Source of the DNA: Escherichia coli
Lineage (GTDB): Bacteria > Pseudomonadota > Gammaproteobacteria > Enterobacterales > Enterobacteriaceae
Strand: one strand, 5' to 3'
Assembly (NCBI GenBank): GCA_031701365.1
Contig: GCA_031701365.1_4118.1
DNA: 64,000 nucleotides
The position numbers and the translations under genes are program-made. The notes beneath the pieces are model-generated. The model had not been told where the DNA came from. It made no database searches and was given only the letters and a program-made list of their open reading frames with translations. Below are positions 43,331 to 60,096 of this stretch, in pieces. Position 1 is the stretch's first letter, and each line of letters starts with the position of its first letter.

Positions 43331-43344
43331 TAGTACTGTATAAT
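43317..43344 (+). promoter_or_regulatory. CAGTACTG-class promoter (TTGACA-16-TATAAT)
   Basis: 'ttgacaaccattagtagtactgtataatgg'. Confidence 0.55.
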
Positions 43345-43390
43345 GGTTCCTGTAGTCTGAAACTTAACACTTAAACTTGAGGTAAAAAAT

Positions 43391-43717: not shown

Positions 43718-43795
43718 CAGTCAAAATACCTCTATAGTATTAAATACTTCTGTACTATATATATGTACAGAAGTATTTCTCGTTAGAGGTTTGTT

Positions 43796-44155
43796 ATGAA
43801 AAGTTATATAAAATTAATAGCACTTGTGTGTGCATTATTTTCATGTTTTAGTTATGGTGCAGCAGCAGAAACATATTGTCGTAGTACTAAGGGAACGTGG
43901 CATGTATTGACTAACGACCCTAGAAATGGTAAAAATATAGTTGTTGATGGCGTGATTTATCGTTTTAAAGTAGAAAGTATTATTGGTAATAAAAAAATCT
44001 CGACTTATAGAGATGATTCTGGTACATTAGCAAACGTAATATTAATTGTAGACCCAAGAACTGGTAATGGTGATATCTATATAGTAATTTACTTGGACTC
44101 ATCGGTACGCCGTGACCTAGATATAGATAAATTGAACTTACACTGTGAAATATAG
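43796..44155 (+). CDS. secreted two-cysteine protein (family member 1)
   Basis: Signal peptide 'MKSYIKLIALVCALFSCFSYGAAA'; mature Cys near N- and C-termini; 'VVDGVIYRFKVESI'. Confidence 0.55.
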   Translation: MKSYIKLIALVCALFSCFSYGAAAETYCRSTKGTWHVLTNDPRNGKNIVVDGVIYRFKVESIIGNKKISTYRDDSGTLANVILIVDPRTGNGDIYIVIYLDSSVRRDLDIDKLNLHCEI

Positions 44156-44166
44156 GACTTAAAAAA

Positions 44167-44544
44167 ATGGTAAACACTATTTTACTTTTGTTGTTGAATA
44201 TTCCAATTATTCTGTCTTTTTTAATTTCTATTTTTATGGCAGGATATTGTTTAGTTGCAGTAATTCATTTTATTTTAACAAACAAATATGTCCTAATTTC
44301 TAAGCTTGATTCTATTTTTGCTTGCGATTCAATGGCTTATAACTTATGGTTAATTTGTTCTTGCATTATGGGAGTAACTTTCCTTCTGCATGTATTTGAT
44401 GTCCTTGACCAAAAGTTCGTATACATCAGTACTGGATTGGCACTTTATCCTGCTACGTGGTACTTGATTTACGTTGGTGATATATGGTATAGTACTTATA
44501 AAGAATATCAGCACAAGAAATCACTTAACGTTGGAGGAAAATAA
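44167..44544 (+). CDS. integral membrane protein
   Basis: 125 aa, multiple TM. Confidence 0.5.
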   Translation: MVNTILLLLLNIPIILSFLISIFMAGYCLVAVIHFILTNKYVLISKLDSIFACDSMAYNLWLICSCIMGVTFLLHVFDVLDQKFVYISTGLALYPATWYLIYVGDIWYSTYKEYQHKKSLNVGGK

Positions 44545-44546
44545 TC

Positions 44547-44897
44547 ATGAAAACTATTTTATTTTTTGTATGTATGTTAATGTGTGGGTTGTCATATGCT
44601 GAACCATTAGAAGGTTTAGTTTGTACAGATGGTAATATTAAACATATCTATCAAGGTGATAGTGACGATAGAGATATTGTATATATTGATGGACAATCAT
44701 ATACGTTTGTTAAAGAGCATACAGTAGGCGACATTAGCTTCACTGAGTTTTCCAACGATACAGACCCTAACTTCTTAGCGTTTATTGAAGTAGATGTGTA
44801 TGAAGATAGTAATGGTACACAATATGCTAAATTAGTTATGATGCGTCGTGGTGCTAAAGAAACTAGTTTTGGTGGCTTGTGTAAATATAAGGATTGA
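44547..44897 (+). CDS. secreted two-cysteine protein (family member 2)
   Basis: Signal peptide 'MKTILFFVCMLMCGLSYA'; 'YIDGQSYTFVKEHTV'; C-terminal Cys. Confidence 0.55.
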   Translation: MKTILFFVCMLMCGLSYAEPLEGLVCTDGNIKHIYQGDSDDRDIVYIDGQSYTFVKEHTVGDISFTEFSNDTDPNFLAFIEVDVYEDSNGTQYAKLVMMRRGAKETSFGGLCKYKD

Positions 44898-44901
44898 TAT
44901 T

Positions 44902-45093
44902 ATGTTGATTTATCAAGGTGATAATATTCGTGTTATGCAGCATCCCTACTTACAAATCTTTGATGTGCAGCAGTATATGGAAGGTGATGACCCAAGAACC
45001 TATGGTCGTAAGTATGATTACTTCACTGTAAAGCAGTGTAAAAATATTAACGAAGTACGACAATTAGTTCAAGAACTTCAAAACAAAGGTTGA
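44902..45093 (+). CDS. hypothetical protein
   Basis: ATG 44902; stop TGA inside the PeSL stem/-35. Confidence 0.45.
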   Translation: MLIYQGDNIRVMQHPYLQIFDVQQYMEGDDPRTYGRKYDYFTVKQCKNINEVRQLVQELQNKG

Positions 45094-45119
45094 CTTCGGT
45101 CAGCCTTTTTTGTTATAAT
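45086..45119 (+). promoter_or_regulatory. PeSL-like cassette: hairpin AAGGTTGAC-TTCG-GTCAGCCTT + T-run fused to promoter (TTGACT-18-TATAAT)
   Basis: Stem contains the -35; TATAAT 45114-19. Confidence 0.65.
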
Positions 45120-45147
45120 TCTATTAATAAATTAGAGGATTTTAATT

Positions 45148-45588
45148 ATGTATGTATATCGTTTTGAACTTAAATTTAGTTACATCGAACCTGACTTAAA
45201 ACCAGCCCTAACTGTTGGCCCGTTTGCACGGTATTCAGCCAGATACAGTACTAAAAATGGATTTGACCGTTTGCTCATGACTACACCTTCTCAATTCCAA
45301 CCTGAACCAACTGAGGATGGGATCTATTCAATCAAAAGTGGATGGGTATTTGGCTGTCAAAGTTTGAAAGATTTGTTCAGATTCTTCACTATGGACTTAG
45401 GTAAATTGCATCGTGCTGGGTTTGCTATATCTGTATATGAAGTTCCAGACCACCATGTAGACATTGGTCGTAATCAAGTTCAGTACTATTGCGGTAGTGC
45501 TAAATTAGTTCGTATCATGTCAGTTAAGGAAGCAAAGGATGAGTTCCGACAAAGTAAAAGAGAAACAAATGAGGTAATATATGGATAA
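45148..45588 (+). CDS. hypothetical protein
   Basis: 146 aa. Confidence 0.5.
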   Translation: MYVYRFELKFSYIEPDLKPALTVGPFARYSARYSTKNGFDRLLMTTPSQFQPEPTEDGIYSIKSGWVFGCQSLKDLFRFFTMDLGKLHRAGFAISVYEVPDHHVDIGRNQVQYYCGSAKLVRIMSVKEAKDEFRQSKRETNEVIYG

Positions 45589-45925
45589 AACTCAAATAGA
45601 ATTAAAGAAATTTGTTTCATTCTATCTTCCTGATGACCCACGTAATTCACAAAAAGATATTGAATATTATAATATCCTATCTAAACAGTTAATGAGAAAG
45701 TTTCAACAGTGTTTAACAATATTCAATACAGATGGAAGACGTAGATACCGAATCGTTTCAATGAATGATGAAAACGCAAATTTCTTTGATTACGATGTGG
45801 TTTTTAGAGCATATAATGATGATCGTATAAAATTAAATTATGATCAAATTATACTTGACCTGAATGTTATATGTGTTATAATCACTCACGTAGCCGAACT
45901 TAATGGTTTTAAAGAATGGTATTGA
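45581..45925 (+). CDS. hypothetical protein
   Basis: 114 aa. Confidence 0.5.
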   Translation: MDKTQIELKKFVSFYLPDDPRNSQKDIEYYNILSKQLMRKFQQCLTIFNTDGRRRYRIVSMNDENANFFDYDVVFRAYNDDRIKLNYDQIILDLNVICVIITHVAELNGFKEWY

Positions 45926-45939
45926 ATAGAGGATAACAT

Positions 45940-46206
45940 ATGAAGCTTAAATTACAATATAATGGATTTACTTTACGTAATGATACTGAATTTATTAATC
46001 GTTCTCCTGGTGCTGAACTGTTTTTACGAGAGATGAACATTCCTTTCATCATTACTACAGTGGGCGACCGTGAAGTTCTACAATACGCAGAGCATCCGAT
46101 CATTGATGTTCCTTGGTACTCTGAGCATATGTACATGGATATGGCACGTCGCTACAACTGTAAGTTCGTAGTTGAAGGTGATAAAATTACAGTCGAATTT
46201 AAATAA
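45940..46206 (+). CDS. hypothetical protein
   Basis: 88 aa. Confidence 0.5.
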   Translation: MKLKLQYNGFTLRNDTEFINRSPGAELFLREMNIPFIITTVGDREVLQYAEHPIIDVPWYSEHMYMDMARRYNCKFVVEGDKITVEFK

Positions 46207-46217
46207 GGTAAATTAAA

Positions 46218-46511
46218 ATGATCAGTACTTCAGTTAATGAAAGCATCGTCGCTGACGTAGAAATGGTTAAAGAATGTGCAGATGAAACTCTTCGTGATAT
46301 GTACATTAATGATTTAATTACTGAATACGGTAGTCGTGGTGTACACGAATTTATTCGTTTAAGTGGAGAGTTGATGAAAAATCGAATTCGTATGAAGCTT
46401 AACGTACATCCAAAAGCATGGGCATTTACATTAAAATACGCAGAAGATATTGTGAATTTGCGTCGAACTGAAGTATATGAACGTTTGCACAATGGTATGT
46501 TAGATAAATGA
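46218..46511 (+). CDS. hypothetical protein
   Basis: 97 aa. Confidence 0.5.
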   Translation: MISTSVNESIVADVEMVKECADETLRDMYINDLITEYGSRGVHEFIRLSGELMKNRIRMKLNVHPKAWAFTLKYAEDIVNLRRTEVYERLHNGMLDK

Positions 46512-46520
46512 TTGTAAAAT

Positions 46521-46550
46521 AGGAATTCTTAAATGAATTCCTTTTTGTTT
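46521..46550 (+). terminator. rho-independent terminator (AGGAATTC-loop-GAATTCCT + T-run)
   Basis: Perfect 8-bp stem then TTTTTGTTT. Confidence 0.65.
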
Positions 46551-46563
46551 ATAAGGTATAGTA

Positions 46564-46785
46564 ATGAAATATATAGTACTTGTACTGATATTATTCAGTA
46601 CTGTTGTAAGTGCTAAACAAAAAGAATATATTAAATGTATAAATTATGAAGAGAAATATGTTGAAACATATAAAAAAAGTATAATTAAAAACGTTTCGAT
46701 TACTAACAGAGCAACAATCATTGTACTTAAAAATGGGTTAATTATGCTATATAAACCACACGTTAAATGTGAAATTATTAATTGA
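46564..46785 (+). CDS. small secreted protein
   Basis: 'MKYIVLVLILFSTVVSA|KQ'. Confidence 0.5.
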   Translation: MKYIVLVLILFSTVVSAKQKEYIKCINYEEKYVETYKKSIIKNVSITNRATIIVLKNGLIMLYKPHVKCEIIN

Positions 46786-46792
46786 GGAAAAT

Positions 46793-47365
46793 ATGAATCG
46801 TAAAGGTCGTTTTAAAGTATCAAAAAAGAACAAAAGTTCTAGGTTTAAACCTATTGTTTTAACAGTTAAATCTAACAAAGAATTAACTGCACTTAGTAAA
46901 AAGATAATTTCATCTAAGATTGAAGTATCATACGTAAATTCATTAAAATATATGAATATAAAACCACTGGACAAACTCATTTCACTTATATTTCAGCGTA
47001 ATGATTTTGAGATATCAGTAGATGATTATAGAGCCTATAATGCTGGTTTCATTAATGTTACTTGTAATAAAAAGCTAACTGAGTTGGAAAACTTGTCATG
47101 TATAGTAAATCTAGATAAAGGTGTAGTGAAATACAATTTTGTACATTTTACTAATATTAATAATGGCATGGGTGTACAATCCAGACCTATAGTACCTACA
47201 TGTGATGTTACTAAATTAGCAAAGCTCAATGATGAAGAATATTTTCAAGAAAGTATTGTGACTGAGCATTTAGATGATATAATAGCTACTTACAAAGAGT
47301 GTATATGGGTTTTGAATGCTATAAAGCCTAAATTGTGTTTAATGAATATTGTTCGTGATTTATGA
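46793..47365 (+). CDS. FFQ-motif family protein
   Basis: ATG 46793 after GAGGA; 'DEEYFQESIVTEHLDDII'. Confidence 0.55.
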   Translation: MNRKGRFKVSKKNKSSRFKPIVLTVKSNKELTALSKKIISSKIEVSYVNSLKYMNIKPLDKLISLIFQRNDFEISVDDYRAYNAGFINVTCNKKLTELENLSCIVNLDKGVVKYNFVHFTNINNGMGVQSRPIVPTCDVTKLAKLNDEEYFQESIVTEHLDDIIATYKECIWVLNAIKPKLCLMNIVRDL

Positions 47366-47378
47366 ATGGGGAATCGTA

Positions 47379-47822
47379 ATGAGTTGGGTAAATGTTAATA
47401 GTATTGAACTTAACGAACAAGATATTTTTGCATTTGTAAATTTAACCAATAATACAGTACTAAAAGGGCGTTTGTTCAGTGCGAGTGATGGATATAAATG
47501 GATCTCTTTGATGGATGATAGTGGTGTGATTTATAATGTAATGCAATTACCCCAATGGGTATATAGTAACACTGCCGACGATGTTCTTGCCGCAGTTATG
47601 CGTGAGTTTGAAAAACTCCCAGGTGGTGATATCAAAAACAAAGTTTTTAATGCAGAACGTAAAAATTATACAGCACAGCAATTGGAATCCCTTGCCATTG
47701 CTGCTTATCAAGCTGCTATTAAGAAGCCAGAGTGCGTTATTCTTAAGTATGTACCAGACTTAAAACTTACGTTGGAAGACATGGATGCATTCATTTTTAC
47801 ATCTGAACTTGATCAGTACTAA
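47379..47822 (+). CDS. hypothetical protein
   Basis: ATG 47379 after GGGGA. Confidence 0.5.
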   Translation: MSWVNVNSIELNEQDIFAFVNLTNNTVLKGRLFSASDGYKWISLMDDSGVIYNVMQLPQWVYSNTADDVLAAVMREFEKLPGGDIKNKVFNAERKNYTAQQLESLAIAAYQAAIKKPECVILKYVPDLKLTLEDMDAFIFTSELDQY

Positions 47823-47937
47823 TTTAACTTTGGGACAACCATTCTTATTATGATATAATGTTTTATGTCATTCGATATAAATGACAACGGAACTATAAAT
47901 ATTATAGTAAAATTTATCTCTTATAGGAGTTATAAAA

Positions 47938-48321
47938 ATGGTTGATAAATGGAATAAGAAAGATCCATCACATGATGTTGATATTTCTGGTCTAGACAAT
48001 GCACATAAGCACAAGTATCTAGATTCACTAGGTCTTCTAAAACCAGACCAAAGTCTTGCACATGATCGTCCATCCCGTGAAAAAGCATTTAGCCTAGAAT
48101 CACTAGGTCATGAGCTTAATCGTGTGTTTGAGGATCACCCAATCTATGTACGTGATATTATCGAGAAACTTAAAGTAACTCCTAAAGAGCACTTTAAAGC
48201 AACAGTACACTCTGCATTCCGTGCATTGCATGATTCTCTCAAGAAAACTCACAATCTTCGTAAAATTCATGATGAAATCGTGAATGCAATCGAAAGTGAA
48301 AAACATAAGTTCAAGAAGTAA
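47938..48321 (+). CDS. basic charged protein, paralog of 48566..49843
   Basis: Shares 'Y(L/V)(D/N)SLGLL' and 'KEL(K/Q)..PKE..K' segments with the next gene. Confidence 0.5.
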   Translation: MVDKWNKKDPSHDVDISGLDNAHKHKYLDSLGLLKPDQSLAHDRPSREKAFSLESLGHELNRVFEDHPIYVRDIIEKLKVTPKEHFKATVHSAFRALHDSLKKTHNLRKIHDEIVNAIESEKHKFKK

Positions 48322-48327
48322 TAAAAA

Positions 48328-48361
48328 GGGGTTGACTAAGGTCAGCCCTTTGTTGTATCAT
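48328..48361 (+). promoter_or_regulatory. PeSL-like cassette (GGGGTTGAC-TAAG-GTCAGCCC; TTGACT-18-TATCAT)
   Basis: Variant loop TAAG; no strong T-run. Confidence 0.5.
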
Positions 48362-48390
48362 AACTTCTCAATATAACTGAGGTATCATAT

Positions 48391-48504
48391 ATGCAAGGTT
48401 TGAAATTTGTAGTTGCTGCACTCATCGCCGCAGTACTGGTTGGTGGTGTATTCTATGTAGTGGATCAAAAAGTAAATCCACCTGCACAAGAACAATCTAA
48501 GTAA
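48391..48504 (+). CDS. small membrane peptide (37 aa) between two PeSL cassettes
   Basis: 'MQGLKFVVAALIAAVLVGGVFYVV...'; hand-translated. Confidence 0.4.
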   Translation: MQGLKFVVAALIAAVLVGGVFYVVDQKVNPPAQEQSK

Positions 48505-48510
48505 CAAAAT

Positions 48511-48543
48511 AAGGTTGACTTCGGTCAGCCTTTTCTTTATACT
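48511..48543 (+). promoter_or_regulatory. PeSL-like cassette (AAGGTTGAC-TTCG-GTCAGCCTT; TTGACT-17-TATACT)
   Basis: Stem + T-run + -10 at 48538-43. Confidence 0.65.
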
Positions 48544-48565
48544 ATAAATATAGACATAGAGAAAA

Positions 48566-49843
48566 ATGAAATCTATGGAGAGAAATCAAATGCCAAGTAA
48601 TTTTACTGATAAAAATGGTGGTAACATGGCTGGTCACTCGGATAAATGGAGTGAACGCAACCGCCGACCAAATAGTTATCAAGCAGGTCAAGGTTCACGT
48701 GGATCACGTAACCAAGGAACTGGTCTAGCTGGTAAAGCAAACGCAGAAGCAGGTGAAGTTAAGAGTACTGAGAACATGACTGAGCTAGAAAAGCTACGTT
48801 ATGTTAATTCATTGGGACTTCTTAATGCTACACAAAAACAACGCCTAGCTGATATGGAACGTGAAGAAAAAGAAAAGTCTGCTCCTGCGAAAGAAGAACC
48901 AAAACAAGAAGCACCAAAGGCGGTTAACCCTGTCAAAGAATTGTCTGATAAGTTAGGTAAGATTTTTGCTAATAAACCACAACTTATCCAAGGTATTGTG
49001 AAAGAATTGCAATCTGTACCTAAAGAAGAATTAAAAGTCAAAGCACAAGCTGTACTTGATGCAATGAGTGGAAATACCAGTACTGAACCAACTGAAGTAT
49101 TCAGTACTATAATGCGTGCACTTGAAGGTACACCACAAGGTGATGTGCCTTCACAAGAGGAAGTAAGTCTTGAAAGCGTACTTAAAACATTTGATAGTAT
49201 TGGTAAAGAAGACCGTGCTAATGCTCAACAAGTTAAGAATGTACTAGCTAAGTTAGAAAACCGTCTGGAAGGTAAAGACGATAAGATTAAATTAGTATCT
49301 GATGCAGTTAACGATGCACTTAAATCTTATGTACAAGGTGAAAAGAGTCGTTTTGTAACTGCAATGGATGCTGCATTCAATACTATGAAAAAGTATGAAG
49401 CTGATCATGGTGAGAAGGTTACACGAGATGGTTATCTGATGCGTGATGATGAAGAAGGTGCAGTAGAACAGAACGATGTTCATTCAGACGAAGAAATTGA
49501 TGACATGGAAGCTGAACTGTCACAAGACCGCCAAATGACTGAAAAATCCCATAACGAACTACAGAAATTAATGCAATGGGTTGCAGATGTTGGTGAAAAA
49601 GCTGGTGCTGATAAGAAGAGTATAAATCGAAATCTTAGTTGGATTAAAGATAAAGTTGGTAACAACGCTCGTAAACTACAAAAAGCGTGGACTGATGTAG
49701 TGAATGGTGCTGTTGACATTGATGTTGAATCCGGTGAGGCATATGATTATGCATTGACTACACTTGATGACTCTTTCCGTGATTACGAAAATGGAAATGT
49801 AACTCCTTGGGAAAAGGACATCATGAGCAAATACGGTAAATGA
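48566..49843 (+). CDS. highly charged A/K/E-rich protein (internal-protein-like composition)
   Basis: 425 aa; low-complexity charged regions; paralogous segments with 47938..48321. Confidence 0.55.
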   Translation: MKSMERNQMPSNFTDKNGGNMAGHSDKWSERNRRPNSYQAGQGSRGSRNQGTGLAGKANAEAGEVKSTENMTELEKLRYVNSLGLLNATQKQRLADMEREEKEKSAPAKEEPKQEAPKAVNPVKELSDKLGKIFANKPQLIQGIVKELQSVPKEELKVKAQAVLDAMSGNTSTEPTEVFSTIMRALEGTPQGDVPSQEEVSLESVLKTFDSIGKEDRANAQQVKNVLAKLENRLEGKDDKIKLVSDAVNDALKSYVQGEKSRFVTAMDAAFNTMKKYEADHGEKVTRDGYLMRDDEEGAVEQNDVHSDEEIDDMEAELSQDRQMTEKSHNELQKLMQWVADVGEKAGADKKSINRNLSWIKDKVGNNARKLQKAWTDVVNGAVDIDVESGEAYDYALTTLDDSFRDYENGNVTPWEKDIMSKYGK

Positions 49844-49851
49844 TAAAACAA

Positions 49852-49885
49852 AAGGTTGACTTCGGTCAGCCTTTTTTTGTAAATA
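49852..49885 (+). promoter_or_regulatory. PeSL-like cassette (AAGGTTGAC-TTCG-GTCAGCCTT + T7; weak -10)
   Basis: Identical stem to other copies; -10 region degenerate. Confidence 0.55.
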
Positions 49886-49914
49886 CAAAAGAGGAATTAA
49901 GAAGAGGGATTACA

Positions 49915-50166
49915 ATGAAAAAATATATTATATTTGGAATTGTATTATTTTCCAGTACTGCTTATGGTGCAGATTATCATTGCTCCGTAGCAAGGCAGGA
50001 TTTCAGAAATGGGGAGTTCTATACTACCTCATACACAAAAGGAATAATACACGACACCGACAGAACTATTGGATTTAATGCGTTTGACAACAAAGATTCA
50101 TATACTTCAGGTATACTATCTGAGCGTAAGACTGATGTAATGGGAATAGAAAAAGAGTTCCGGTGA
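49915..50166 (+). CDS. small secreted protein
   Basis: ATG 49915; 'MKKYIIFGIVLFSSTAYG|ADYHC'. Confidence 0.5.
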   Translation: MKKYIIFGIVLFSSTAYGADYHCSVARQDFRNGEFYTTSYTKGIIHDTDRTIGFNAFDNKDSYTSGILSERKTDVMGIEKEFR

Positions 50167-50176
50167 TTCCGTAGCA

Positions 50177-50500
50177 ATGTGCAATGACATTGAAAGTACT
50201 AAAACAATTTATTATAATAATGAACGTAACTATCGTTTTCATAATTTAACCACAAATAAAAGTTTACTATTTTACAATTGTAAAGAAGTAATACTCCCAT
50301 CAGACAATAGCTGTACTCCAACTAATCAACCCCCAGCACAATGTAATACTCCCTCTGAACCTGATAAAAATAAAAAAGACAAAGATAAAGATAAAAAAGA
50401 AGACAAAAAACCTTTAAAAGATAAAAAGAAAGATAAAAAACCTAATCCGTTTAAAAATAATAAACCAGCACAACCCGATATGACGTGTAAAATAAAATAA
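50177..50500 (+). CDS. Lys/Asp-rich low-complexity protein
   Basis: 107 aa; 'KNKKDKDKDKKEDKKPLKDKKKDKKP'. Confidence 0.45.
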   Translation: MCNDIESTKTIYYNNERNYRFHNLTTNKSLLFYNCKEVILPSDNSCTPTNQPPAQCNTPSEPDKNKKDKDKDKKEDKKPLKDKKKDKKPNPFKNNKPAQPDMTCKIK

Positions 50501-50509
50501 GGATATATA

Positions 50510-50929
50510 ATGAAAAAGATTTTTTTAAGTATTATTTTAGTACTTTTTAGTTTTAATGTATATGCAACAGATGCTAAACAGGTTGCAAATACAGTAAAAG
50601 ATGTTATAGTAGATAATGCTCCTACATTAGAGGAAATTGGGGTAAAAACTTGTGATATAGTAATATATAATTTAGTTAATGATGAACGAGTTATGTTGAA
50701 TACGTATGAACAAGTAGTCCCATTGGTTGAATCTGGTGATGCTTTTAGCTTTACATATAAAGTTAAATTAACAGGAGGGGTTGAAGTTAATCTTGACATT
50801 GATACCGCTTCAGTACTAAAAGATAAACTAGGATATGTGTTCAATCGTATTCGTGAAGAAGGTCATCTTAAGTATGTTTATGAAAGTAAAATACTAAAAC
50901 GTGCAATAGTTATAGAAAACTGTAAATGA
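50510..50929 (+). CDS. secreted protein
   Basis: 'MKKIFLSIILVLFSFNVYA|TDA'. Confidence 0.5.
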   Translation: MKKIFLSIILVLFSFNVYATDAKQVANTVKDVIVDNAPTLEEIGVKTCDIVIYNLVNDERVMLNTYEQVVPLVESGDAFSFTYKVKLTGGVEVNLDIDTASVLKDKLGYVFNRIREEGHLKYVYESKILKRAIVIENCK

Positions 50930-50937
50930 TAATAAAA

Positions 50938-50970
50938 GGGTTGACTTCGGTCAGCCTTTTTTGTTATGAT
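50938..50970 (+). promoter_or_regulatory. PeSL-like cassette (GGGTTGAC-TTCG-GTCAGCC + T-run; TTGACT-18-TATGAT)
   Basis: Same stem-loop; -10 at 50965-70. Confidence 0.6.
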
Positions 50971-50998
50971 GTTGATATTAACTACAGAGGATAAAGTA

Positions 50999-51640: not shown

Positions 51641-51701
51641 CAGAACTGATGTTCTGGTGTATTCTTAATAAACCATAAAAATTGCGGTAAAGGATAAAAT
51701 C

Positions 51702-51983
51702 ATGCGTTCATTTGAAAACTTAATAGGTAAGCATCTTTTATCTGAAATTGATGCAGACGTTAAAGAATTATCCAAATCAAAAAGTTACATTCATTTGGAT
51801 GAACTGTTTATTAAGTACGGTGAGATTGGTTTTAAGTCATTATTTGTTTTTACTATGAAAGTACATAGTTTAAAGTACTTCGATTTGAGTGCTAAAGATG
51901 GTGAACCGAATCTATATTACATGTATTACCTTAAGAACAAAGATGAAGCTAATACATTACTCTCTGAATATATATTGGGGTAA
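51702..51983 (+). CDS. hypothetical protein
   Basis: 93 aa. Confidence 0.5.
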   Translation: MRSFENLIGKHLLSEIDADVKELSKSKSYIHLDELFIKYGEIGFKSLFVFTMKVHSLKYFDLSAKDGEPNLYYMYYLKNKDEANTLLSEYILG

Positions 51984-51985
51984 AA

Positions 51986-52324
51986 ATGGAACAATATTTT
52001 GAATTAATAAACAAAGTATCATTTTATGTAGTATCTTTGGTTTGGGTGTATTATATGTTTTGCTACATTATTGCATTCTTCCGATACACTACTTTATATG
52101 AACGTATCTACTATGATGCCCCAATTTCATTCTTGATGTTTTGTGCATGTACGTGGGGAATATTAGAAGTACTGATATGTGGGTATAGTACTGATGAATT
52201 AAATCTGGTATCGGTCTTGACTGGGTTTTCATTTGTTGTTATGATAGCTGCCGTTCCAGTATGGTTGTTCTTTGGACTAGTTCATCGCATTGATATATGG
52301 CGTTCTAATATCCCTGAAAAGTAA
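51986..52324 (+). CDS. small 3-TM membrane protein family, member A
   Basis: 112 aa; basic patch after TM1; C-terminal 'RSNIPEK'. Confidence 0.6.
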   Translation: MEQYFELINKVSFYVVSLVWVYYMFCYIIAFFRYTTLYERIYYDAPISFLMFCACTWGILEVLICGYSTDELNLVSVLTGFSFVVMIAAVPVWLFFGLVHRIDIWRSNIPEK

Positions 52325-52333
52325 GGATTTGTA

Positions 52334-52675
52334 ATGATTTATTACACTAACATGTTTGCCTATGCTGTTGCTTGCATTTACATTGTTTACTTCTTATTCG
52401 GTGGAGTACTGTGCTTCTTTAAGTACAAAACGTTGTTCAACCGAATGTACCCAAATCATCCAATTGTAGTTGTACTTTTGATTCTTTCAGTTTCTCAAAT
52501 AATCGTTGAAACTACAATGGGTATCAGTAGTGTACATTATAGTTTTGGTACTATAGTAATTATTACTATGCTTATTGCATACATTTTAGTACTTGGATAT
52601 GGTATCTTTGGTAATATTGGTATGAAAATGTATCATCGAATTAAAACATTACGTGATAATCTACCGGAGCGTTGA
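52334..52675 (+). CDS. small 3-TM membrane protein family, member B
   Basis: 'FFKYKTLFNRMYP'; C-terminal 'RDNLPER'. Confidence 0.6.
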   Translation: MIYYTNMFAYAVACIYIVYFLFGGVLCFFKYKTLFNRMYPNHPIVVVLLILSVSQIIVETTMGISSVHYSFGTIVIITMLIAYILVLGYGIFGNIGMKMYHRIKTLRDNLPER

Positions 52676-52676
52676 T

Positions 52677-53021
52677 ATGTATAATTTGAACCTAATCTCA
52701 TATATTATAACAACACTGTTTACATTCTATGCCTTTGTTGGTATAATCCTACTGTACTTTAAATTTTATAAAGTGTTTAACCGTTTCTATCCTTCAATGG
52801 AGAATGAGTTTTTCTTTGTGTTGTACGTAGGTTACACATTAATGGCTACATGTTTCACTGTAGCCGATGGTGTCATCGGCATTAAAACTGATTCCCCAAA
52901 TGGTAGTACGCTGGTTGCATTTATTCTTACCGGATTCCTTGCAACTTATATTGCCTTCATTACAACATGGTCAGTGGTTGAATTTCTCTTGCGACTACGA
53001 AAGAATATGCCGAATCGATAG
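52677..53021 (+). CDS. small 3-TM membrane protein family, member C
   Basis: ATG 52677 after GGAG; 'YFKFYKVFNRFYP'; C-terminal 'RKNMPNR'. Confidence 0.6.
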   Translation: MYNLNLISYIITTLFTFYAFVGIILLYFKFYKVFNRFYPSMENEFFFVLYVGYTLMATCFTVADGVIGIKTDSPNGSTLVAFILTGFLATYIAFITTWSVVEFLLRLRKNMPNR

Positions 53022-53030
53022 GAGACATAT

Positions 53031-53285
53031 ATGTTTGCATTGCGTAACAAAAACACTAAAGAATTATTATGTATTGATACCGTATGGGATTGTGCGGGTT
53101 CAACTACAGTTCTTGAAGAAGGAACTGGATATTGCGTGTTTGTTGTACATGATAGGAATGAACTCGAATTATTACTTGCTGAGTTCAATGCTGGTGGTAA
53201 TCCTAACAGTACTGAATACCCTGAGATTATCAATCCAGCACCTCCAGGTTCATATGAAATCCTACCACTATGGGTGTTGAAATAA
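53031..53285 (+). CDS. hypothetical protein
   Basis: 84 aa. Confidence 0.5.
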   Translation: MFALRNKNTKELLCIDTVWDCAGSTTVLEEGTGYCVFVVHDRNELELLLAEFNAGGNPNSTEYPEIINPAPPGSYEILPLWVLK

Positions 53286-53665
53286 TGCGACAAATGTACA
53301 AAGTAACCGAGCTAAACAAGCGTCTGGTTAAACAATCTATGTTTGAGGATAAAGAGTCTTACTATAACTTTAAACGTGCTGTAGAGGCTGCTATCCACAT
53401 CCAGAAGCTTAAAGAACGTGGTTGTATTATTCTGGAAAATGGTTCGGAAGTTGTAACGGATGACTTTAGTGTAGCGTTTGATGTTTCACCTGATGGGACG
53501 CTATCAATGCCCCGCTTAGGAACTGGAAACATGACTGTTTGGGTTGGCTTCACTATGGGGAATGTACCTGGTACTGTGTACGTAGATGATGCGGAATTGA
53601 AAGACAGTTTCAAAAACTTATCTTATCTTGAACCACAATACGCACATGAAATGAATTTATTTTGA
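53285..53665 (+). CDS. hypothetical protein
   Basis: ATG 53285 (TAATG overlap). Confidence 0.5.
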   Translation: MRQMYKVTELNKRLVKQSMFEDKESYYNFKRAVEAAIHIQKLKERGCIILENGSEVVTDDFSVAFDVSPDGTLSMPRLGTGNMTVWVGFTMGNVPGTVYVDDAELKDSFKNLSYLEPQYAHEMNLF

Positions 53666-53666
53666 G

Positions 53667-53694
53667 TTGACAAACACATTCAGTACTGTATAAT
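53667..53694 (+). promoter_or_regulatory. CAGTACTG-class promoter (TTGACA-16-TATAAT)
   Basis: 'gttgacaaacacattcagtactgtataatgcttatcaa'. Confidence 0.6.
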
Positions 53695-53742
53695 GCTTAT
53701 CAAGGGGGATGAACTTCTCATCCCTACAATCGAGGAACTACC

Positions 53743-54297
53743 ATGATTACTTTTAAGAAAACTGCTAACCACATCCATGAAATCTACATTAACGGTCATA
53801 AAGCTGGCCTTCTTCGTTTACTCGCCCATCACCCTGATGCTACCGTATCTGATAATGAACCTAAAGATTGGCGTGTCTTTTTCTTTGGAAAGTACAGTGA
53901 TTTTCAAGTATCAAACCTGAAGAACATTCGTTCAGTATGCACGTTAACTGAAATTAAAGAAAAGTTAGCACAAGCATTGAAAACTAATCCAGATGGTGTT
54001 CTTCCACCTGATAACTTTGTAGAGAAAGGTTATGCCTTAGCTCATTTCAAAGATGGTACTATTCAATCTATCAGTACTGAATATGAATATCATTGGACTG
54101 AGTACTTCACTTATGGTTCGAGTAATACATTGATGGATTCACGTAGTAAATTGGAAGAAGTACTGACTCGTATGAATGAACGCGAGCGTCAGTTATATGA
54201 CAAACCAGAAATGTGGAGTTCAACTTACATTGACCGTATTGACTATGTTATTATGACTCCAATCTTTGACACTGCTTACTATGATTCTTTGAAATAA
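53743..54297 (+). CDS. hypothetical protein
   Basis: 184 aa. Confidence 0.55.
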   Translation: MITFKKTANHIHEIYINGHKAGLLRLLAHHPDATVSDNEPKDWRVFFFGKYSDFQVSNLKNIRSVCTLTEIKEKLAQALKTNPDGVLPPDNFVEKGYALAHFKDGTIQSISTEYEYHWTEYFTYGSSNTLMDSRSKLEEVLTRMNERERQLYDKPEMWSSTYIDRIDYVIMTPIFDTAYYDSLK

Positions 54298-54308
54298 GGA
54301 TAACTTAT

Positions 54309-54485
54309 ATGAAACTACGTACTCGTAATCGACTGATGGATGCACTGTACCATGAACAGCTTTCACTGAATGAAGTGAAGCGTCAGTTAATGTACACATA
54401 TCAGTTTCCCGCTCGCATTGCAAAACAACGTGCTAAAGAATTGCTGAAAGAAGCAATCGAGTACTGGGAATCTGATTCGTACTAA
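54309..54485 (+). CDS. small basic helical protein (58 aa)
   Basis: Hand-translated; below track cutoff. Confidence 0.35.
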   Translation: MKLRTRNRLMDALYHEQLSLNEVKRQLMYTYQFPARIAKQRAKELLKEAIEYWESDSY

Positions 54486-54513
54486 TTGTCACGTTAATTA
54501 AGTGAGGCGATAA

Positions 54514-54765
54514 ATGAAAATTTTATTAGTTCTAATACTACTAATTGTTTTACCATTTACGTTAGTATCCCCTGAACTTGCATGGAATGTGTTTGTGTAC
54601 TTACTATGTACTATGGTGGTAAATGGTATCTTGTTCTTAGTTCTATTCATAAATGGAATAGGACACGGTGGAGGATGGACCAGTACTGCTAATATTGTAC
54701 ATAAAACCACTATGTCTTTATTTGTAGTGTGGAATTTATTCTGGACTTGGTTTGTGTTCTTCTAA
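54514..54765 (+). CDS. small membrane protein
   Basis: 83 aa; 3 hydrophobic segments. Confidence 0.5.
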   Translation: MKILLVLILLIVLPFTLVSPELAWNVFVYLLCTMVVNGILFLVLFINGIGHGGGWTSTANIVHKTTMSLFVVWNLFWTWFVFF

Positions 54766-54773
54766 TTAAAAAT

Positions 54774-55145
54774 ATGAATATAGATTTGAAAGGTGCAACA
54801 CGAACTGTTATCCTCATTGGTGAATATGCTATCAAGATTCCAACCTTTAAAAGTTGGAAGCTATTCTTAACAGGGATGATAGCTAACCTCAATGAACGTT
54901 CGTGGATGCAGTACTCCAATCGTAGTGATACTGGTATCTGTCCTACTTTGTGGTCATCATGTACTGGACTAGTAACTGTACAGAAACGTTGTAAGCCAGT
55001 TCAACATAGGGGTTTATTTTGGGTGGAGTTGTGTGCTTTAGCATTGAATTCAGAGTTAAGTACTGACTTCTTTTATTCAGATGCGAAGCCAGAAAACTTT
55101 GGTTATCTGAATGGTAAGTTAGTTAAACTTGATTACGGAGATTAA
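54774..55145 (+). CDS. truncated protein-kinase-like ORF (N-lobe through DFG-like motif)
   Basis: 'GEYAIKIP' (beta3 Lys-like), 'SDAKPENFGYLNGKLVKLDYGD*' (D-x-K-P-x-N then DYG, stop directly after). Confidence 0.4.
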   Translation: MNIDLKGATRTVILIGEYAIKIPTFKSWKLFLTGMIANLNERSWMQYSNRSDTGICPTLWSSCTGLVTVQKRCKPVQHRGLFWVELCALALNSELSTDFFYSDAKPENFGYLNGKLVKLDYGD

Positions 55146-55227
55146 TATGTACGCGTGAAAGTCTAGTAGAAATTGAATACGACTAAGTAAACCAAGATTT
55201 TTTTGAAGTTACACAAAGGAACATAAC

Positions 55228-55422
55228 ATGTTATTAGTATATTCAAAGCGTTTCTGGATTTCATTTATTGTACTATCGCTAATCGGCTTCGGTGTGAGTA
55301 TACTCTTTTCGTGGGATGATTTGGATACATGGTATTATGAAGTTCCGTGGTACATGAAGATGGCTCCTTGTTACGCGGCATTGTTCGTGTCCTTCCTTAT
55401 TGTTGTCTTCAGTGAGGATTAG
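55228..55422 (+). CDS. small membrane protein
   Basis: 64 aa. Confidence 0.45.
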   Translation: MLLVYSKRFWISFIVLSLIGFGVSILFSWDDLDTWYYEVPWYMKMAPCYAALFVSFLIVVFSED

Positions 55423-55489
55423 TTGATGTAGTGGCAGTCAACTCGATGGGTATGAGATTGTTAAGTTGGGAATTATTGAGTAAAAGGTA

Positions 55490-55518
55490 TTGACACCGTT
55501 CCCATTTAACAGTATTAT
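55490..55518 (+). promoter_or_regulatory. sigma70-type promoter (TTGACA-17-TATTAT) with conserved leader
   Basis: Leader 'tgtacaccaagtaatgaggaat' nearly identical to 55859-55880. Confidence 0.5.
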
Positions 55519-55555
55519 GTATGTACACCAAGTAATGAGGAATAGGAGTGAAACA

Positions 55556-55816
55556 ATGTTAACACCTGAACAGCAAGAAGCCCAAATCGCTAAACACAGC
55601 CTTGACTTTCCTAACGGTATGACAGTTAAAGAACTGAAAGCACTCATTGCTGATTGGCCTGAAACTAACCAATACGGTGAAGATACTAAAGTACTGATCA
55701 GCACTCAAGATGGTATTGATTGCACAGTGCATTCATCTTGGTGCAGTGAAGTTCGTTTCAATGCAAACGATGAACTGGTATATGATCTTAGTTTGGATGT
55801 AGAAGACCGCAATTAA
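55556..55816 (+). CDS. hypothetical protein
   Basis: ATG 55556 after GAGGAATAGGAG. Confidence 0.5.
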   Translation: MLTPEQQEAQIAKHSLDFPNGMTVKELKALIADWPETNQYGEDTKVLISTQDGIDCTVHSSWCSEVRFNANDELVYDLSLDVEDRN

Positions 55817-55887
55817 GACAAATAAAAGGATTGACACTAGTTCTATAGTATTGTAACATGTGTACACCAAATAATGAGGAATCTGAA

Positions 55888-56247
55888 ATGGCATCTTTAA
55901 CTGAAATCACTGAACTGAATCCACTGGCAATTAGTACTGTTCAACGCACAAAGACGTTTTACTTTCGTCCAGTCGATGGTTGGAAGCGTGGTGAGAATGG
56001 CGACTATCGTGTTCTGGAAGATAATCTCGTTGAACGTGTGAATTCAGAACTTAATGTTTATGAAGGTGTTACGGTTGTACGTTCACATTCTCGTTATTTC
56101 GAATACTACATTGAGTCTTCATCGGTAAATGAAAACCGTTCATTTTCTGTTGACAATACTGATGCACTGCGTAATGCAGTATCTATTTTGTGCAATATTG
56201 CAGAAGAAATGGGTTTAACTATCGTAACGATTGGTGAGTTAGCATGA
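55888..56247 (+). CDS. hypothetical protein
   Basis: ATG 55888 after duplicated leader/RBS cassette. Confidence 0.5.
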   Translation: MASLTEITELNPLAISTVQRTKTFYFRPVDGWKRGENGDYRVLEDNLVERVNSELNVYEGVTVVRSHSRYFEYYIESSSVNENRSFSVDNTDALRNAVSILCNIAEEMGLTIVTIGELA

Positions 56248-56441
56248 TTAAAACTTTTATTCTTACAATGGTATTTGGTTCTTATGGTTATGGTGGTGGT
56301 GTGGCGACCGTTGAGTATCCAGTATACGAAGATTGCAAAGCTGCTGCTGAAGTGTTTGTAAAAACAACTAAAGATTTGGCTACCGTTACTGATGCCAAAG
56401 CGTGGTGTACAACTAAAAATACACCAGAAACTAAGAAGTAA
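56244..56441 (+). CDS. small secreted/membrane protein
   Basis: 65 aa; hydrophobic N-terminus then Gly-rich. Confidence 0.45.
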   Translation: MIKTFILTMVFGSYGYGGGVATVEYPVYEDCKAAAEVFVKTTKDLATVTDAKAWCTTKNTPETKK

Positions 56442-56448
56442 AAAATAA

Positions 56449-56482
56449 AGGGTTGACAGTAGTCATCCCTTTTTGCTATAAT
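56449..56482 (+). promoter_or_regulatory. PeSL-like cassette (AGGGTTGAC-AGTA-GTCATCCCT + T-run; TTGACA-18-TATAAT)
   Basis: Directly upstream of denV; shares 'ctttttgctataat(c/t)atttcatc' with copies 7 and 8. Confidence 0.65.
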
Positions 56483-56510
56483 CATTTCATCGAAACGAGA
56501 GGATGAAAAC

Positions 56511-56948
56511 ATGACACGCATTAACTTAGTACACGTTAAAGAACTTGCTGACCAACATCTGATGGCTGAATACCGTGAACTCCCACGTGTGTTTGGTGCT
56601 GTACAAAAACATGTTCAAGCAGGTAAACGAGTACGTGATTTCAAAATTAACAGTACTTATCTGTTAGGTTCAGGTCATGTAACATTCTTCTATAACAAGT
56701 TATTGTACTTACAGAAGCGTCATATTGATATTGTTAACGAATGTTTGCGTCGTGGTATGAAGATTCAAAACATTGAAGTAAACGACATTAGCAGCTTCCC
56801 TGCGGAGTTTTGCCAGGACTATGTGCCATCTGATTCAGAGATTAAAATGTCTCGTGACCGTTTGATTGAGAAGCTCCAGATGAAGCCTACGTGGTATAAG
56901 TTTACTGATGTTGAGTTACCTGAGTACTATACCGAGATGATTAAGTAA
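56511..56948 (+). CDS. denV: endonuclease V, pyrimidine-dimer DNA glycosylase (T4 DenV homolog)
   Basis: 145 aa; 'MTRINL...[33 protein letters not shown]...GHVTFFY' matches the T4 endonuclease V sequence as I recall it, including N-terminal Thr2 and catalytic-region residues. Confidence 0.9.
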
Positions 56949-56961
56949 ATAGAGATTAAAA

Positions 56962-57177
56962 ATGATACTTGACACTTCTAGATACAAGTTTTCAAACAAC
57001 CAGAACACAAATAGAACACACACCATGAAATGGTGGTTGAGACATCGTGATAAGGTTTTGAACACACACACCGTATCAGAACTTATCTCGGCAATTATAG
57101 AATTAAGCGATGATGATTGTGTTGAAAACAATATATATAATTTATGGAATGATTATATTAACATAACTAAGGGTTGA
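56962..57177 (+). CDS. hypothetical protein
   Basis: 71 aa. Confidence 0.45.
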   Translation: MILDTSRYKFSNNQNTNRTHTMKWWLRHRDKVLNTHTVSELISAIIELSDDDCVENNIYNLWNDYINITKG

Positions 57178-57203
57178 CTTCGGTCAGCCCTTTTTGCTAT
57201 AAT
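57171..57203 (+). promoter_or_regulatory. PeSL-like cassette (GGGTTGAC-TTCG-GTCAGCCC + T5; TTGACT-18-TATAAT)
   Basis: ~45-bp identical to copy at 59198. Confidence 0.7.
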
Positions 57204-57229
57204 TATTTCATCAACACAAGAGGTAACAA

Positions 57230-57466
57230 ATGAAACTATCTTTTATACGATTAGCTGAATTCTTCGGTACTGATATTATTACTTTACAACAAATTGCAGA
57301 CAATACTTCATTAAGTACACAAGAAGTACTTGACTTAGATGTAATTAAGTGTGATAATACTTCCATCGATTTCAAAGAAGGTCTTGTCGAAAAAGATAAG
57401 ATTCAGGCTAAGATTAATGGTGCTGGACGGGTTCAGTACTGGAAAGGAGTTTTGAGTAATGTATAA
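57230..57466 (+). CDS. hypothetical protein
   Basis: 78 aa. Confidence 0.5.
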   Translation: MKLSFIRLAEFFGTDIITLQQIADNTSLSTQEVLDLDVIKCDNTSIDFKEGLVEKDKIQAKINGAGRVQYWKGVLSNV

Positions 57467-58835
57467 CAATGAACATAAAAAATTAATTGAAAATTTTGAT
57501 GGTTATGTATATATAAAGTCAGAAAAACTTAATAACAACTGTTATATACATTATAATCATCCTGAACGTTATCTTCCAGTCAAAATTGAATTATCTGATC
57601 TTGTTAAAAGTGTTAAAAAAAATAAAAATCAACTAGCTCCACTACGAACAAAAGAAGAAATAGTTGAAATTGTTAGAAATAAATTTATTAATAAAAAACA
57701 ATATTCAATAAAAAAAATTGATTATAATAAAAGAAGTTCTGAGTGTATTGTTCATTATGATGACAATTCTGGAATTACATATACAGTTTCATTACAAACT
57801 TTAATATATAAAAATTGGGAACCAGAGACAGCTAAGCCAAGAAAGACATTGAATATGCATATTGAATATGCAAAGAAAAAATTACATGAATTAGGTCATG
57901 AATTTATAAAATTTAATAGTGATAAAATTGATAAAAAAACATATGTTATTTACAAACATAGCTCAAGAATATTACCATGTGAAATACAATATTACGAATT
58001 GCGTAGATGTGATGATAAATTAATACCTCATTTGACTATAGATGAAATAAAAGCAAAAGTTGAGCATGAAGCATCAATACAAAATGTAATAATAACAGAT
58101 ATTATAGAATGTATAAATTTATCATATTCTAATATAAAATATAAATTACCTGAAAATAATGATATAGGTGGTGAAGTACAATATATAAGTATGATTAAGG
58201 ATGGATTTTCGTTTAGACATAAAAATAATATCAAAACTGATAATTTTTATTATAATTATGGTGTGGAGTTTTGTAAAAAAAATGGTTTGGTATTCATAAA
58301 AGTGATTGAGTATAATAAAAAAATGACAAAATATCATTTTAAAATGCTAAATGGTGAAGATTGGAAACCAACTTATAGCTCTTTGGCACATAGTGGTTCT
58401 TTATGTAAAGGTGGATACCAAAATAATAATGCTGCCCGTGTATATGTGAATAATGACCATTGTGGTGAAGCTGACAATGCTGGGAAAACCATGCAAAAAA
58501 AATTCAATAATAGATTAACGGTTAGAAATAATTCATTTTATAAAAATTATGGTATTAAAAATTTTTGGAAAAATGAATTATTGATTTTATTTAATAATAA
58601 AAATGGTGGTAAATTAGCTACTGAATTGGAAAAAATAATTCATACAACTGCATTATGTGGAAGACCACATGGAAGAACCGGTTATTATGAAAAAGGCGAT
58701 GGGTGCACAGAAACATTCAACAACATCCATCGACCTAAAGTTAACGAAGCCATTAAAAAGTTCTTAGCAGAACATGAAGGTGAGTACATTATCGAACGTG
58801 ATATCAATGGTATTTTTGGTGAAGTAATTTTGTAA
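57459..58835 (+). CDS. AT-rich Lys/Asn/Tyr-rich protein with internal ~40-aa repeats (possible acquired/mobile gene; nuclease role unproven)
   Basis: 458 aa; four repeats of 'x-Y-x-I-K-...-Y-x-I-H-Y'-like module; Cys/His-containing C-terminal region; local composition markedly more AT-rich than flanks. Confidence 0.5.
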   Translation: MYNNEHKKLIENFDGYVYIKSEKLNNNCYIHYNHPERYLPVKIELSDLVKSVKKNKNQLAPLRTKEEIVEIVRNKFINKKQYSIKKIDYNKRSSECIVHYDDNSGITYTVSLQTLIYKNWEPETAKPRKTLNMHIEYAKKKLHELGHEFIKFNSDKIDKKTYVIYKHSSRILPCEIQYYELRRCDDKLIPHLTIDEIKAKVEHEASIQNVIITDIIECINLSYSNIKYKLPENNDIGGEVQYISMIKDGFSFRHKNNIKTDNFYYNYGVEFCKKNGLVFIKVIEYNKKMTKYHFKMLNGEDWKPTYSSLAHSGSLCKGGYQNNNAARVYVNNDHCGEADNAGKTMQKKFNNRLTVRNNSFYKNYGIKNFWKNELLILFNNKNGGKLATELEKIIHTTALCGRPHGRTGYYEKGDGCTETFNNIHRPKVNEAIKKFLAEHEGEYIIERDINGIFGEVIL

Positions 58836-58855
58836 AACAAAAGAGGTTAATTAAA

Positions 58856-59182
58856 ATGAAAAAGTTAATGTTAGTTATGTTAATGTGTTTATCAACAACA
58901 GTGAATGCAAAAACTGAAGCATCAACAACATGTAAATCCACAAAAACTGACACTATCTACAATTTGTATTTGGATGTAACAACACAAACAGCAAAAATAG
59001 ATGGAAAGAAGTTTATGTTTGAAAGTCAAGAAGTATTTAAAGATGGAAGTGGTTCGTATACTATTTTTTCAAATGATAAATTGAATCAAAAATTAAAAGT
59101 TTTTGTTATTAAACCTAATAAGATAAAATATATTATTACCTATAATGGTAAAAATATTGATATGGGTAATTGTGTGTATTAA
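58856..59182 (+). CDS. secreted two-cysteine protein (family member 3)
   Basis: 'MKKLMLVMLMCLSTTVNA|KTE'; 'KIDGKKFMFESQEV'; C-terminal 'GNCVY'. Confidence 0.55.
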   Translation: MKKLMLVMLMCLSTTVNAKTEASTTCKSTKTDTIYNLYLDVTTQTAKIDGKKFMFESQEVFKDGSGSYTIFSNDKLNQKLKVFVIKPNKIKYIITYNGKNIDMGNCVY

Positions 59183-59197
59183 ATATGTTTATAAAAA

Positions 59198-59230
59198 GGG
59201 TTGACTTCGGTCAGCCCTTTTTGCTATAAT
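59198..59230 (+). promoter_or_regulatory. PeSL-like cassette (GGGTTGAC-TTCG-GTCAGCCC + T5; TTGACT-18-TATAAT)
   Basis: Identical to 57171 copy through 'gctataattatttcatcaac'. Confidence 0.7.
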
Positions 59231-59258
59231 TATTTCATCAACTGATGAGGATAACGAA

Positions 59259-60029: not shown

Positions 60030-60038
60030 TTACATATG

Positions 60039-60070: not shown

Positions 60071-60096
60071 GGGAGTATAATCTGCGGAGAAGAAAT

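Follow-up and report, generated by a model that had tools for sequence, protein, structure and literature searches.

Jumbo phages carry hundreds of small early genes, almost all of them unannotated, and the question raised here is what three small genes in one such phage might do. They lie in a 64,000-nucleotide (nt) stretch from an Escherichia coli assembly (GCA_031701365.1, contig GCA_031701365.1_4118.1; hereafter the window) and encode small proteins, here named A, B, and C, each with a predicted signal peptide and two Cys. Two lipoprotein genes lie upstream of them. The window represents a 121Q/PBECO4-like jumbo coliphage (Asteriusvirus): positions 43000-46000 are 98% identical to Escherichia phages 121Q, PBECO4, ECO103 4-12-1, and relatives, which are RaK2-like jumbo myoviruses of about 350 kb. 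We describe A, B, and C as a real, previously unmerged, phage-specific family of a known fold class, with a plausible candidate role. The explanation we favor as a whole, with a probability of roughly 0.4, is that they are early periplasmic binder or inhibitor barrels, possibly directed at peptidoglycan hydrolases.

Kinship and export signals of A, B, and C

All five open reading frames (ORFs), those of A, B, C, and the two lipoproteins, are found on the + strand with the coordinates given in the preliminary description. The three non-lipidated proteins are as follows.

43796-44155, + strand: protein A, 119 amino acids (aa), equivalent to 121Q gp188 and PHROG 25709; predicted signal peptide 43796-43867; mature protein of 95 aa with Cys4 and Cys93, isoelectric point (pI) 7.0
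44547-44897, + strand: protein B, 116 aa, equivalent to 121Q gp190 and PHROG 27330; predicted signal peptide 44547-44600; mature protein of 98 aa with Cys8 and Cys94, pI 4.4
58856-59182, + strand: protein C, 108 aa, equivalent to 121Q gp222; predicted signal peptide 58856-58909; mature protein of 90 aa with Cys8 and Cys88, pI 9.2; a probable distant and sporadic member of the family

Each gene begins with ATG, with a GAGG-type Shine-Dalgarno sequence 7-9 nt upstream. Using a simple rule of n-region, h-region, and small-x-small cleavage site, we identified in each protein an n-region of the form MK(K), a hydrophobic core 9-15 residues long, and a cleavage site predicted between AAA and ETYC in A, SYA and EPLE in B, and VNA and KTEA in C. 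The signal peptide is retained in orthologs down to 31% identity, though its sequence diverges; those of Ecwhy_1, Turkey5, A4, UE-S1, and RaK2 are very different, with an AXA-like site in each. The 121Q annotation places the gp188 start 30 nt further downstream, on a GTG, and the gp190 start 27 nt further downstream, on an ATG, so that the signal peptides are cut off, and the profiles of PHROG 25709 and PHROG 27330 begin at the same internal positions, inside the signal peptide. The starts given here correct these truncated reference start codons. Elsewhere, PBECO4 is annotated with only a 60-aa fragment of C (gp305), and the A ortholog of CMSTMSU (L007 2218-2612) is split by a frameshift in a record marked UNVERIFIED.

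Mature A, B, and C contain exactly two Cys each, and in a 20-member family alignment these are the sole invariant columns. Further conserved residues (G28, F33, G40, D50, and Y71 in A numbering) fall in turns and the core. A preliminary description of the window, made from the sequence alone, had reported a shared signal peptide, an early Cys, a central (V/I)DG-x-x-(Y/F)-x-F segment, and a C-terminal Cys, and each of these was confirmed. The pattern [VI]DG..[YF].F has three matches among all 347 ORFs of the window (31,053 residues) compared with about 0.06 expected from composition, and they fall only in A (residue 50), B (residue 47), and C (residue 48), although the pattern itself came from these proteins, which makes the count partly circular.

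Kinship was assessed with and without the signal peptide. Pairwise BLASTP with the signal peptide gave E-values of 5e-6 for A and B, 0.004 for A and C, and 0.001 for B and C. For the mature parts only, the A and B families aligned in hhalign with a probability of 92% (E 6e-7), and by sequence comparison A and B are certain to be paralogs. Protein C aligns weakly with A or B alone in the same profile-profile comparison (E ~0.02, probability 2%). This speaks for the alternative that the family is A and B only and that C is an unrelated small secreted protein resembling them by convergence or chance, as do the partial circularity of the motif count and the inclusion of A and B in the alignment behind the structural model of C. 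A mature-only hidden Markov model (HMM) built from A, B, and a homolog from Erwinia phage Hallingskeid, searched among 1299 ORFs, speaks against that alternative: C ranks right behind all members (E 0.003-0.005), the next match has an E-value of 0.29, and only 3 of 20,000 shuffled mature C sequences reach the real score (empirical p ~1.5e-4). In addition, C matches the A ortholog of UE-S1 at 9e-4 and the Hallingskeid homolog at 0.019, both Cys and the motif lie at equivalent positions, and its five AlphaFold models all score well (see below). We consider an unrelated C highly improbable, and C is probably a distant family member. The alignment significance sought among the three mature proteins is thus found directly for A and B and, for C, through the family HMM; compared with A or B singly, C gives weak scores.

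A and B are full-length members of PHROG 25709 and PHROG 27330 (E 5e-64 and 2e-63). The PHROGs, of unknown function, keep them as two families with none for C, whereas here two PHROGs and one orphan are merged into one family with a predicted fold. Sequence statistics and prediction are the basis for the kinship, the export signals, and the fold; taken jointly, we regard family membership, export, and the barrel as likely.

Other candidates were considered for membership. An Ecwhy_1 ORF with a signal peptide and two Cys (L004 10527-10823) is not supported as a member, scoring 3.9 bits in a test where 2084 of 20,000 shuffles reached its score. The window itself holds further small signal-peptide ORFs at 46564-46785, 49915-50166 (with 50177-50500), 50510-50929, and 31790-32245, several with Cys near each end. 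These have no detectable kinship to A, B, and C, and 46564, 49915, and 50510 were unsupported in the mature-only HMM test. ORFs 49915 and 50177 may be one split gene.

Predicted fold and likeness to the MliC/PliC class

With an alignment of the mature family, AlphaFold2 predicts A to be eight-stranded and all-beta (predicted local distance difference test, pLDDT, 77; predicted template modeling score, pTM, 0.68), with Cys4 on strand 1 and Cys93 on strand 8. For C, a 19-sequence alignment gave the same topology (pLDDT 81, pTM 0.69; all five models at least 74), with Cys8 on strand 1 and Cys88 on the last strand. The A model superimposes on an independently computed BFVD model of the B ortholog from slurp01 with a template modeling (TM) score of 0.69. 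The disulfide deemed likely in the preliminary description would join the two invariant Cys on predicted strands 1 and 8 and so staple the seam of the barrel.

In a fold search, the MliC/PliC class and its relatives ACP and PhiA were the top neighbors of the C model and ranked high for the A model. To our knowledge, every periplasmic protein with this exact architecture belongs to the class of peptidoglycan hydrolase inhibitors. PliC is periplasmic, with a signal peptide, 90 mature residues, and two Cys, and MliC is an eight-stranded barrel stabilized by a disulfide (PMC2267010). The beta1-beta8 disulfide is preserved across MliC, PliC, and ACP, and ACP inhibits lysozyme without the canonical motifs (PMC5507604). 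MliC/PliC (PF09864, COG3895), Neisseria ACP, and Brucella PhiA share with A, B, and C a Sec or lipoprotein signal, a periplasmic location, and a mature length of about 85-100 aa; for the phage proteins the signals are rule-based, with AXA-type sites kept in orthologs. The predicted models also have the eight-stranded antiparallel beta-barrel of about 90 aa, and they place the two Cys on the first and last strands, which a disulfide joins in the MliC/PliC class. On size, location, topology, and Cys placement, the phage family therefore resembles the MliC/PliC class. The two differ in Cys-Cys spacing (80-89 residues in the phage family, 65 in E. coli MliC) and in origin, with MliC and PliC bacterial and A, B, and C encoded by virulent jumbo phages.

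A number of observations weigh against reading A, B, and C as inhibitor barrels of this kind. Known targets of MliC and PliC are c-type (GH22) lysozymes, not GH24 enzymes. The C model is not independent evidence because its alignment held A and B sequences, and the disulfide is proposed from Cys on predicted strands 1 and 8, not from a Cys-Cys distance. Scanned against Pfam, none of A, B, and C had a match at E <= 1, and an hhalign comparison of the family with 64 distinct enterobacterial MliC sequences yielded a probability below 1%, with an MliC profile that is shallow (82-100% identity). The SxSGAxY/SGxxY motif of loop 4, which enters the lysozyme active site, was absent from 20 members in a regular-expression search; the equivalent loop carries a conserved (T/I)(V/I)G(D/N) turn in its place. 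YxxxTKG, the strand 6 motif, is matched just once, by chance and without conservation, at residues 3-9 of mature A in the window. PhiA, which has the same fold and also lacks SGxxY, showed in vitro no binding and no inhibition of either SagA or hen egg-white lysozyme (PMC8334348); activity can therefore not be predicted from the fold by itself. Finally, the B ortholog of CRJP21 (L009 1801-2151) is labeled "structural protein," which is odd beside a Sec signal peptide; a literature search for an explanation of this label found no paper on CRJP21. In all public records checked, A, B, C, and the lipoproteins are otherwise labeled hypothetical, apart from B in K64-1 and Muenster ("membrane protein"), and the Sharanji paper leaves the A, B, and C genes without discussion.

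Since the sequence hallmarks of MliC/PliC are absent and the predicted architecture agrees, we file the family as MliC/PliC-like in architecture and not as a member. A, B, and C had no significant match in Pfam, NCBIfam, PADLOC, or PDB sequences, no phage homolog turned up among 50,697 records in a tblastn search with E. coli MliC, and no description of phage-encoded MliC/PliC-fold proteins was found in the literature searched.

Genomic setting, distribution, and divergence

A and B are interleaved with small membrane protein genes in one transcription unit, and C closes another. The features of both units are listed here.

43317-43344, + strand: consensus sigma-70 promoter (TTGACA-16-TATAAT, 12/12) heading gp187-A-gp189-B-gp191
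43391-43717, + strand: gp187-like small membrane protein, 108 aa, about three hydrophobic segments; first gene of the unit
44167-44544, + strand: gp189-like membrane protein, 125 aa, between A and B
44902-45093, + strand: gp191-like soluble protein, 63 aa; last gene of the unit
45085-45108, + strand: intrinsic terminator hairpin closing the gp187-gp191 unit; a composite element, with the -35 box of the following promoter inside the hairpin
57174-57203, + strand: promoter (11/12 with TG) driving the 57230 ORF, the endonuclease ORF 57459-58835, and C
59199-59230, + strand: copy of the composite terminator-promoter element, 17 nt past the C stop codon

In all nine related loci with an upstream membrane protein gene (121Q, UE-S1, Ecwhy_1, Turkey5, A4, RaK2, CRJP21, and two metagenomic contigs), the A start is preceded at a distance of 463-506 nt by a promoter with at least 11/12 matches. 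Given this conserved host-type sigma-70 promoter, A and B are presumably made early. Across the window, 39 near-consensus sigma-70 promoters (at least 11/12) lie on the + strand and two on the - strand, as would fit a dense early region transcribed by host RNA polymerase. The composite element, GGTTGACTTCGGTCAGCC, occurs in seven + strand copies (45088, 48330, 48513, 49854, 50939, 57172, and 59199) where 0.01 would be expected by chance. The copies examined consist of a terminator hairpin with the -35 box TTGACT inside the stem, followed by a T-run and TATAAT. The copies at 57172 and 59199 delimit the unit that ends with C. A gene also lies between the A and B orthologs in each related phage checked (RaK2, A4, Turkey5, and Ecwhy_1) and in metagenomic contigs; in Ecwhy_1, A4, and RaK2 it is matched by BLASTP as a gp189 homolog.

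The preliminary description placed these proteins in an accessory region, which holds for C only. A and B are present in every matching jumbo phage record (46-48), covering RaK2-like phages of E. coli, Salmonella, and Klebsiella, with their order conserved; they are core genes of the E. coli and Klebsiella RaK2-like jumbo phages. C is present only in 121Q, PBECO4, and UB and is an accessory copy within a homing-endonuclease hot spot. It directly follows the 458-aa endonuclease ORF 57459-58835, between denV and an nrdC.10-like gene, in a mosaic 3.6 kb stretch (56500-60100) of which no database phage covers more than 51% and in which different phages hold different homing or HNH endonucleases. 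Both C and the Hallingskeid homolog lie in contexts other than the A/B unit. A profile search of 1.84 billion representative proteins gave about 11 small relatives or clusters (80-132 aa), the full-length ones with a signal peptide and two Cys, and family members were seen only in RaK2-like jumbo phages and metagenomic contigs. Matches of 594-1844 aa in multiple stretches from the same search were rejected as compositional noise because these are repetitive proteins, several with Ig-like domains.

The cassette around A and B diverges quickly. Identity to Ecwhy_1 is 60% for gp187, 62% for A, 44% for gp189, and 78% for B, compared with about 85-99% for most neighboring genes, making gp189 the fastest-diverging gene of the cassette. 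Other window ORFs with signal peptides or multiple transmembrane segments have similarly low identity to Ecwhy_1, so that envelope-targeted genes stand out as the fastest-evolving of this early region. Phage A4 encodes its own divergent B (L003 20734-21087), followed by a remnant (21098-21262) identical to the C-terminal half of an Ecwhy_1-type B, which points to allele replacement by recombination. Fast divergence would suit genes directed at other phages or at the cell surface, and relaxed constraint could also explain it in the cassette.

Among the signal-peptide ORFs noted above, 46564, 49915/50177, 50510, and 31790 are 41-67% identical to Ecwhy_1. At 51986-53021 and 60097-62877, tandem arrays of three and eight genes encode small, apparently paralogous multi-pass membrane proteins of 104-141 aa, and many members diverge fast between related phages (24-91% identity).

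Candidate roles and the neighboring lipoproteins

In the explanation we favor, A, B, and C would be paralogs of one phage-specific family, transcribed early from a host-type promoter (A and B together with small inner-membrane proteins), Sec-exported early to the periplasm of the infected cell, and oxidized there by the Dsb system. The 90-98 mature residues would fold as an eight-stranded antiparallel barrel whose seam, formed by the first and last strands, is stapled by the disulfide, and the soluble proteins would act by stoichiometric protein binding. Their target and biological role are argued by analogy of fold. As a best guess, they would bind a peptidoglycan hydrolase, be it the GH24 tail lysozyme brought in by a superinfecting phage, the lysozyme that the phage itself encodes, or a lytic enzyme of the host; this target class leads because of the inhibitor-class architecture and the precedent of T4 Spackle, whose outcome may be reached here via a different fold. 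Hydrolase inhibition itself is a tentative assignment.

The T4 protein Spackle, which is made early, is periplasmic, and contains a disulfide, blocks the GH24 tail lysozyme that a superinfecting phage brings in (PMC7677548). Like the phage family, Spackle (gp61.3) is an early product, small and periplasmic, with a cleaved signal peptide and one disulfide (PMC7677548, PMC7650644). It differs in being a 75-aa alpha-helical bundle, whereas A, B, and C are predicted to be all-beta. Its sequence is unrelated to theirs, and any analogy in function is hypothetical. No PHROG or Pfam match to Spackle, an alpha-helical bundle that binds the gp5 lysozyme domain, was found for A, B, or C, whose models are all-beta. 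Asteriusviruses encode a basic GH24 T4-type lysozyme, which in 121Q is annotated as a tail lysozyme (PMC12805682). Mature B is acidic (pI 4.4). A more specific version is that the family is a PliC-fold counterpart of Spackle, evolved or captured beyond sequence recognition, that inhibits GH24 tail lysozymes, with charge-diversified paralogs (A neutral, B acidic, C basic) and recombined alleles reflecting an arms race among co-infecting jumbo phages. We consider this version unlikely. If A, B, and C do inhibit periplasmic hydrolases, the task of Spackle would have been solved a second time with an unrelated structure, and through these proteins superinfection exclusion and envelope protection would become open to testing in jumbo phages. 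The superinfection exclusion or envelope remodeling suggested in the preliminary description is compatible with the predicted early expression, the MliC/PliC-like predicted fold, and the fast divergence of the cassette.

Without any hydrolase being inhibited, A and B might instead be periplasmic partners of gp187 and gp189, in a module spanning inner membrane and periplasm that blocks superinfecting DNA entry (Imm-like) or modulates lysis timing (RI/antiholin-like). The shared promoter-terminator unit of gp187, A, gp189, and B, the gene between the A and B orthologs in RaK2, A4, Turkey5, Ecwhy_1, and metagenomic contigs, and the status of these four as the fastest-diverging genes of the neighborhood all point that way. 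Yet gp187 and gp189 are not paralogs, so there is no duplicated unit of transmembrane segment plus barrel; the P0024 contig has an A-like gene without an upstream membrane protein gene; C and the Hallingskeid homolog lie in other contexts; and no Imm, RI, or holin similarity appears in Pfam, PHROGs, or NCBIfam. Such a module is also unlikely.

The two remaining alternatives concern what the barrels would bind. As lipocalin- or avidin-like barrels, A, B, and C could bind a small ligand or an envelope lipid, sequestering or carrying a periplasmic molecule, and act in envelope remodeling, not enzyme inhibition. This is rather improbable, as a 90-aa barrel with a beta1-beta8 disulfide best matches the MliC/PliC class, at least for C, and the wide pI spread among the paralogs fits macromolecular surfaces better than one common small ligand. 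Masking of receptors or porins, in which A, B, and C would bind the periplasmic face of outer-membrane receptors and block adsorption or injection as the lipoproteins Llp and Cor do, would agree with the predicted early periplasmic location, fast divergence, the sporadic paralog C, and the two lipoproteins nearby. A, B, and C are soluble and unlipidated, though, and have no Llp or Cor family match; Llp is absent among the fold matches, and only the first lipoprotein gives a weak Cor match. We regard this possibility as quite improbable.

The two lipoproteins correspond to 121Q gp175 and gp177.

39785-40036, + strand: lipoprotein 1, 83 aa; lipobox FLLTAC-D, with Asp at +2; two further Cys; PHROG 902
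40398-40673, + strand: lipoprotein 2, 91 aa; lipobox MFLTAC-N; four further Cys; probable distant paralog of lipoprotein 1

The preliminary description had noted lipobox-like L-T-A-C signals in both. These are canonical, fitting [LVI][ASTVI][GAS]C at the end of the signal peptide, and the lipobox is kept in homologs from four other phage groups (ISGC, LVGC, LVGC, ITGC, and LTGC). They are real lipoprotein genes, unrelated to A, B, and C, and belong to a separate and widespread family, PHROG 902. Cor membership of lipoprotein 1 is not established by a PHROG 1119 match (E 0.0046) over residues 1-48 only, mainly the signal peptide, nor is TrbK entry-exclusion membership of the lipoproteins by a match of 16.6 bits against a cutoff of 23, again mainly in the signal peptide. 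In E. coli, Asp at +2 after the lipidated Cys is an inner-membrane retention signal. Most members of the lipoprotein/PHROG 902 group have this Asp and are thus predicted to be retained in the inner membrane.

ORF 39785 matches PHROG 902 (E 2.6e-14) and has homologs in 585 phage records, all hypothetical, from Ounavirinae, Vequintavirinae, Demerecviridae vibriophages, Eneladusvirus, and others. The PHROG 902 phage lipoproteins have a lipobox followed by conserved C...CP cysteines, and 39785 and 40398 have the same arrangement. ORF 40398 is restricted to jumbo phages; it shares with PHROG 902 the invariant lipobox Cys, the second Cys, and the C-P pair, and carries an extra insert with two more Cys.

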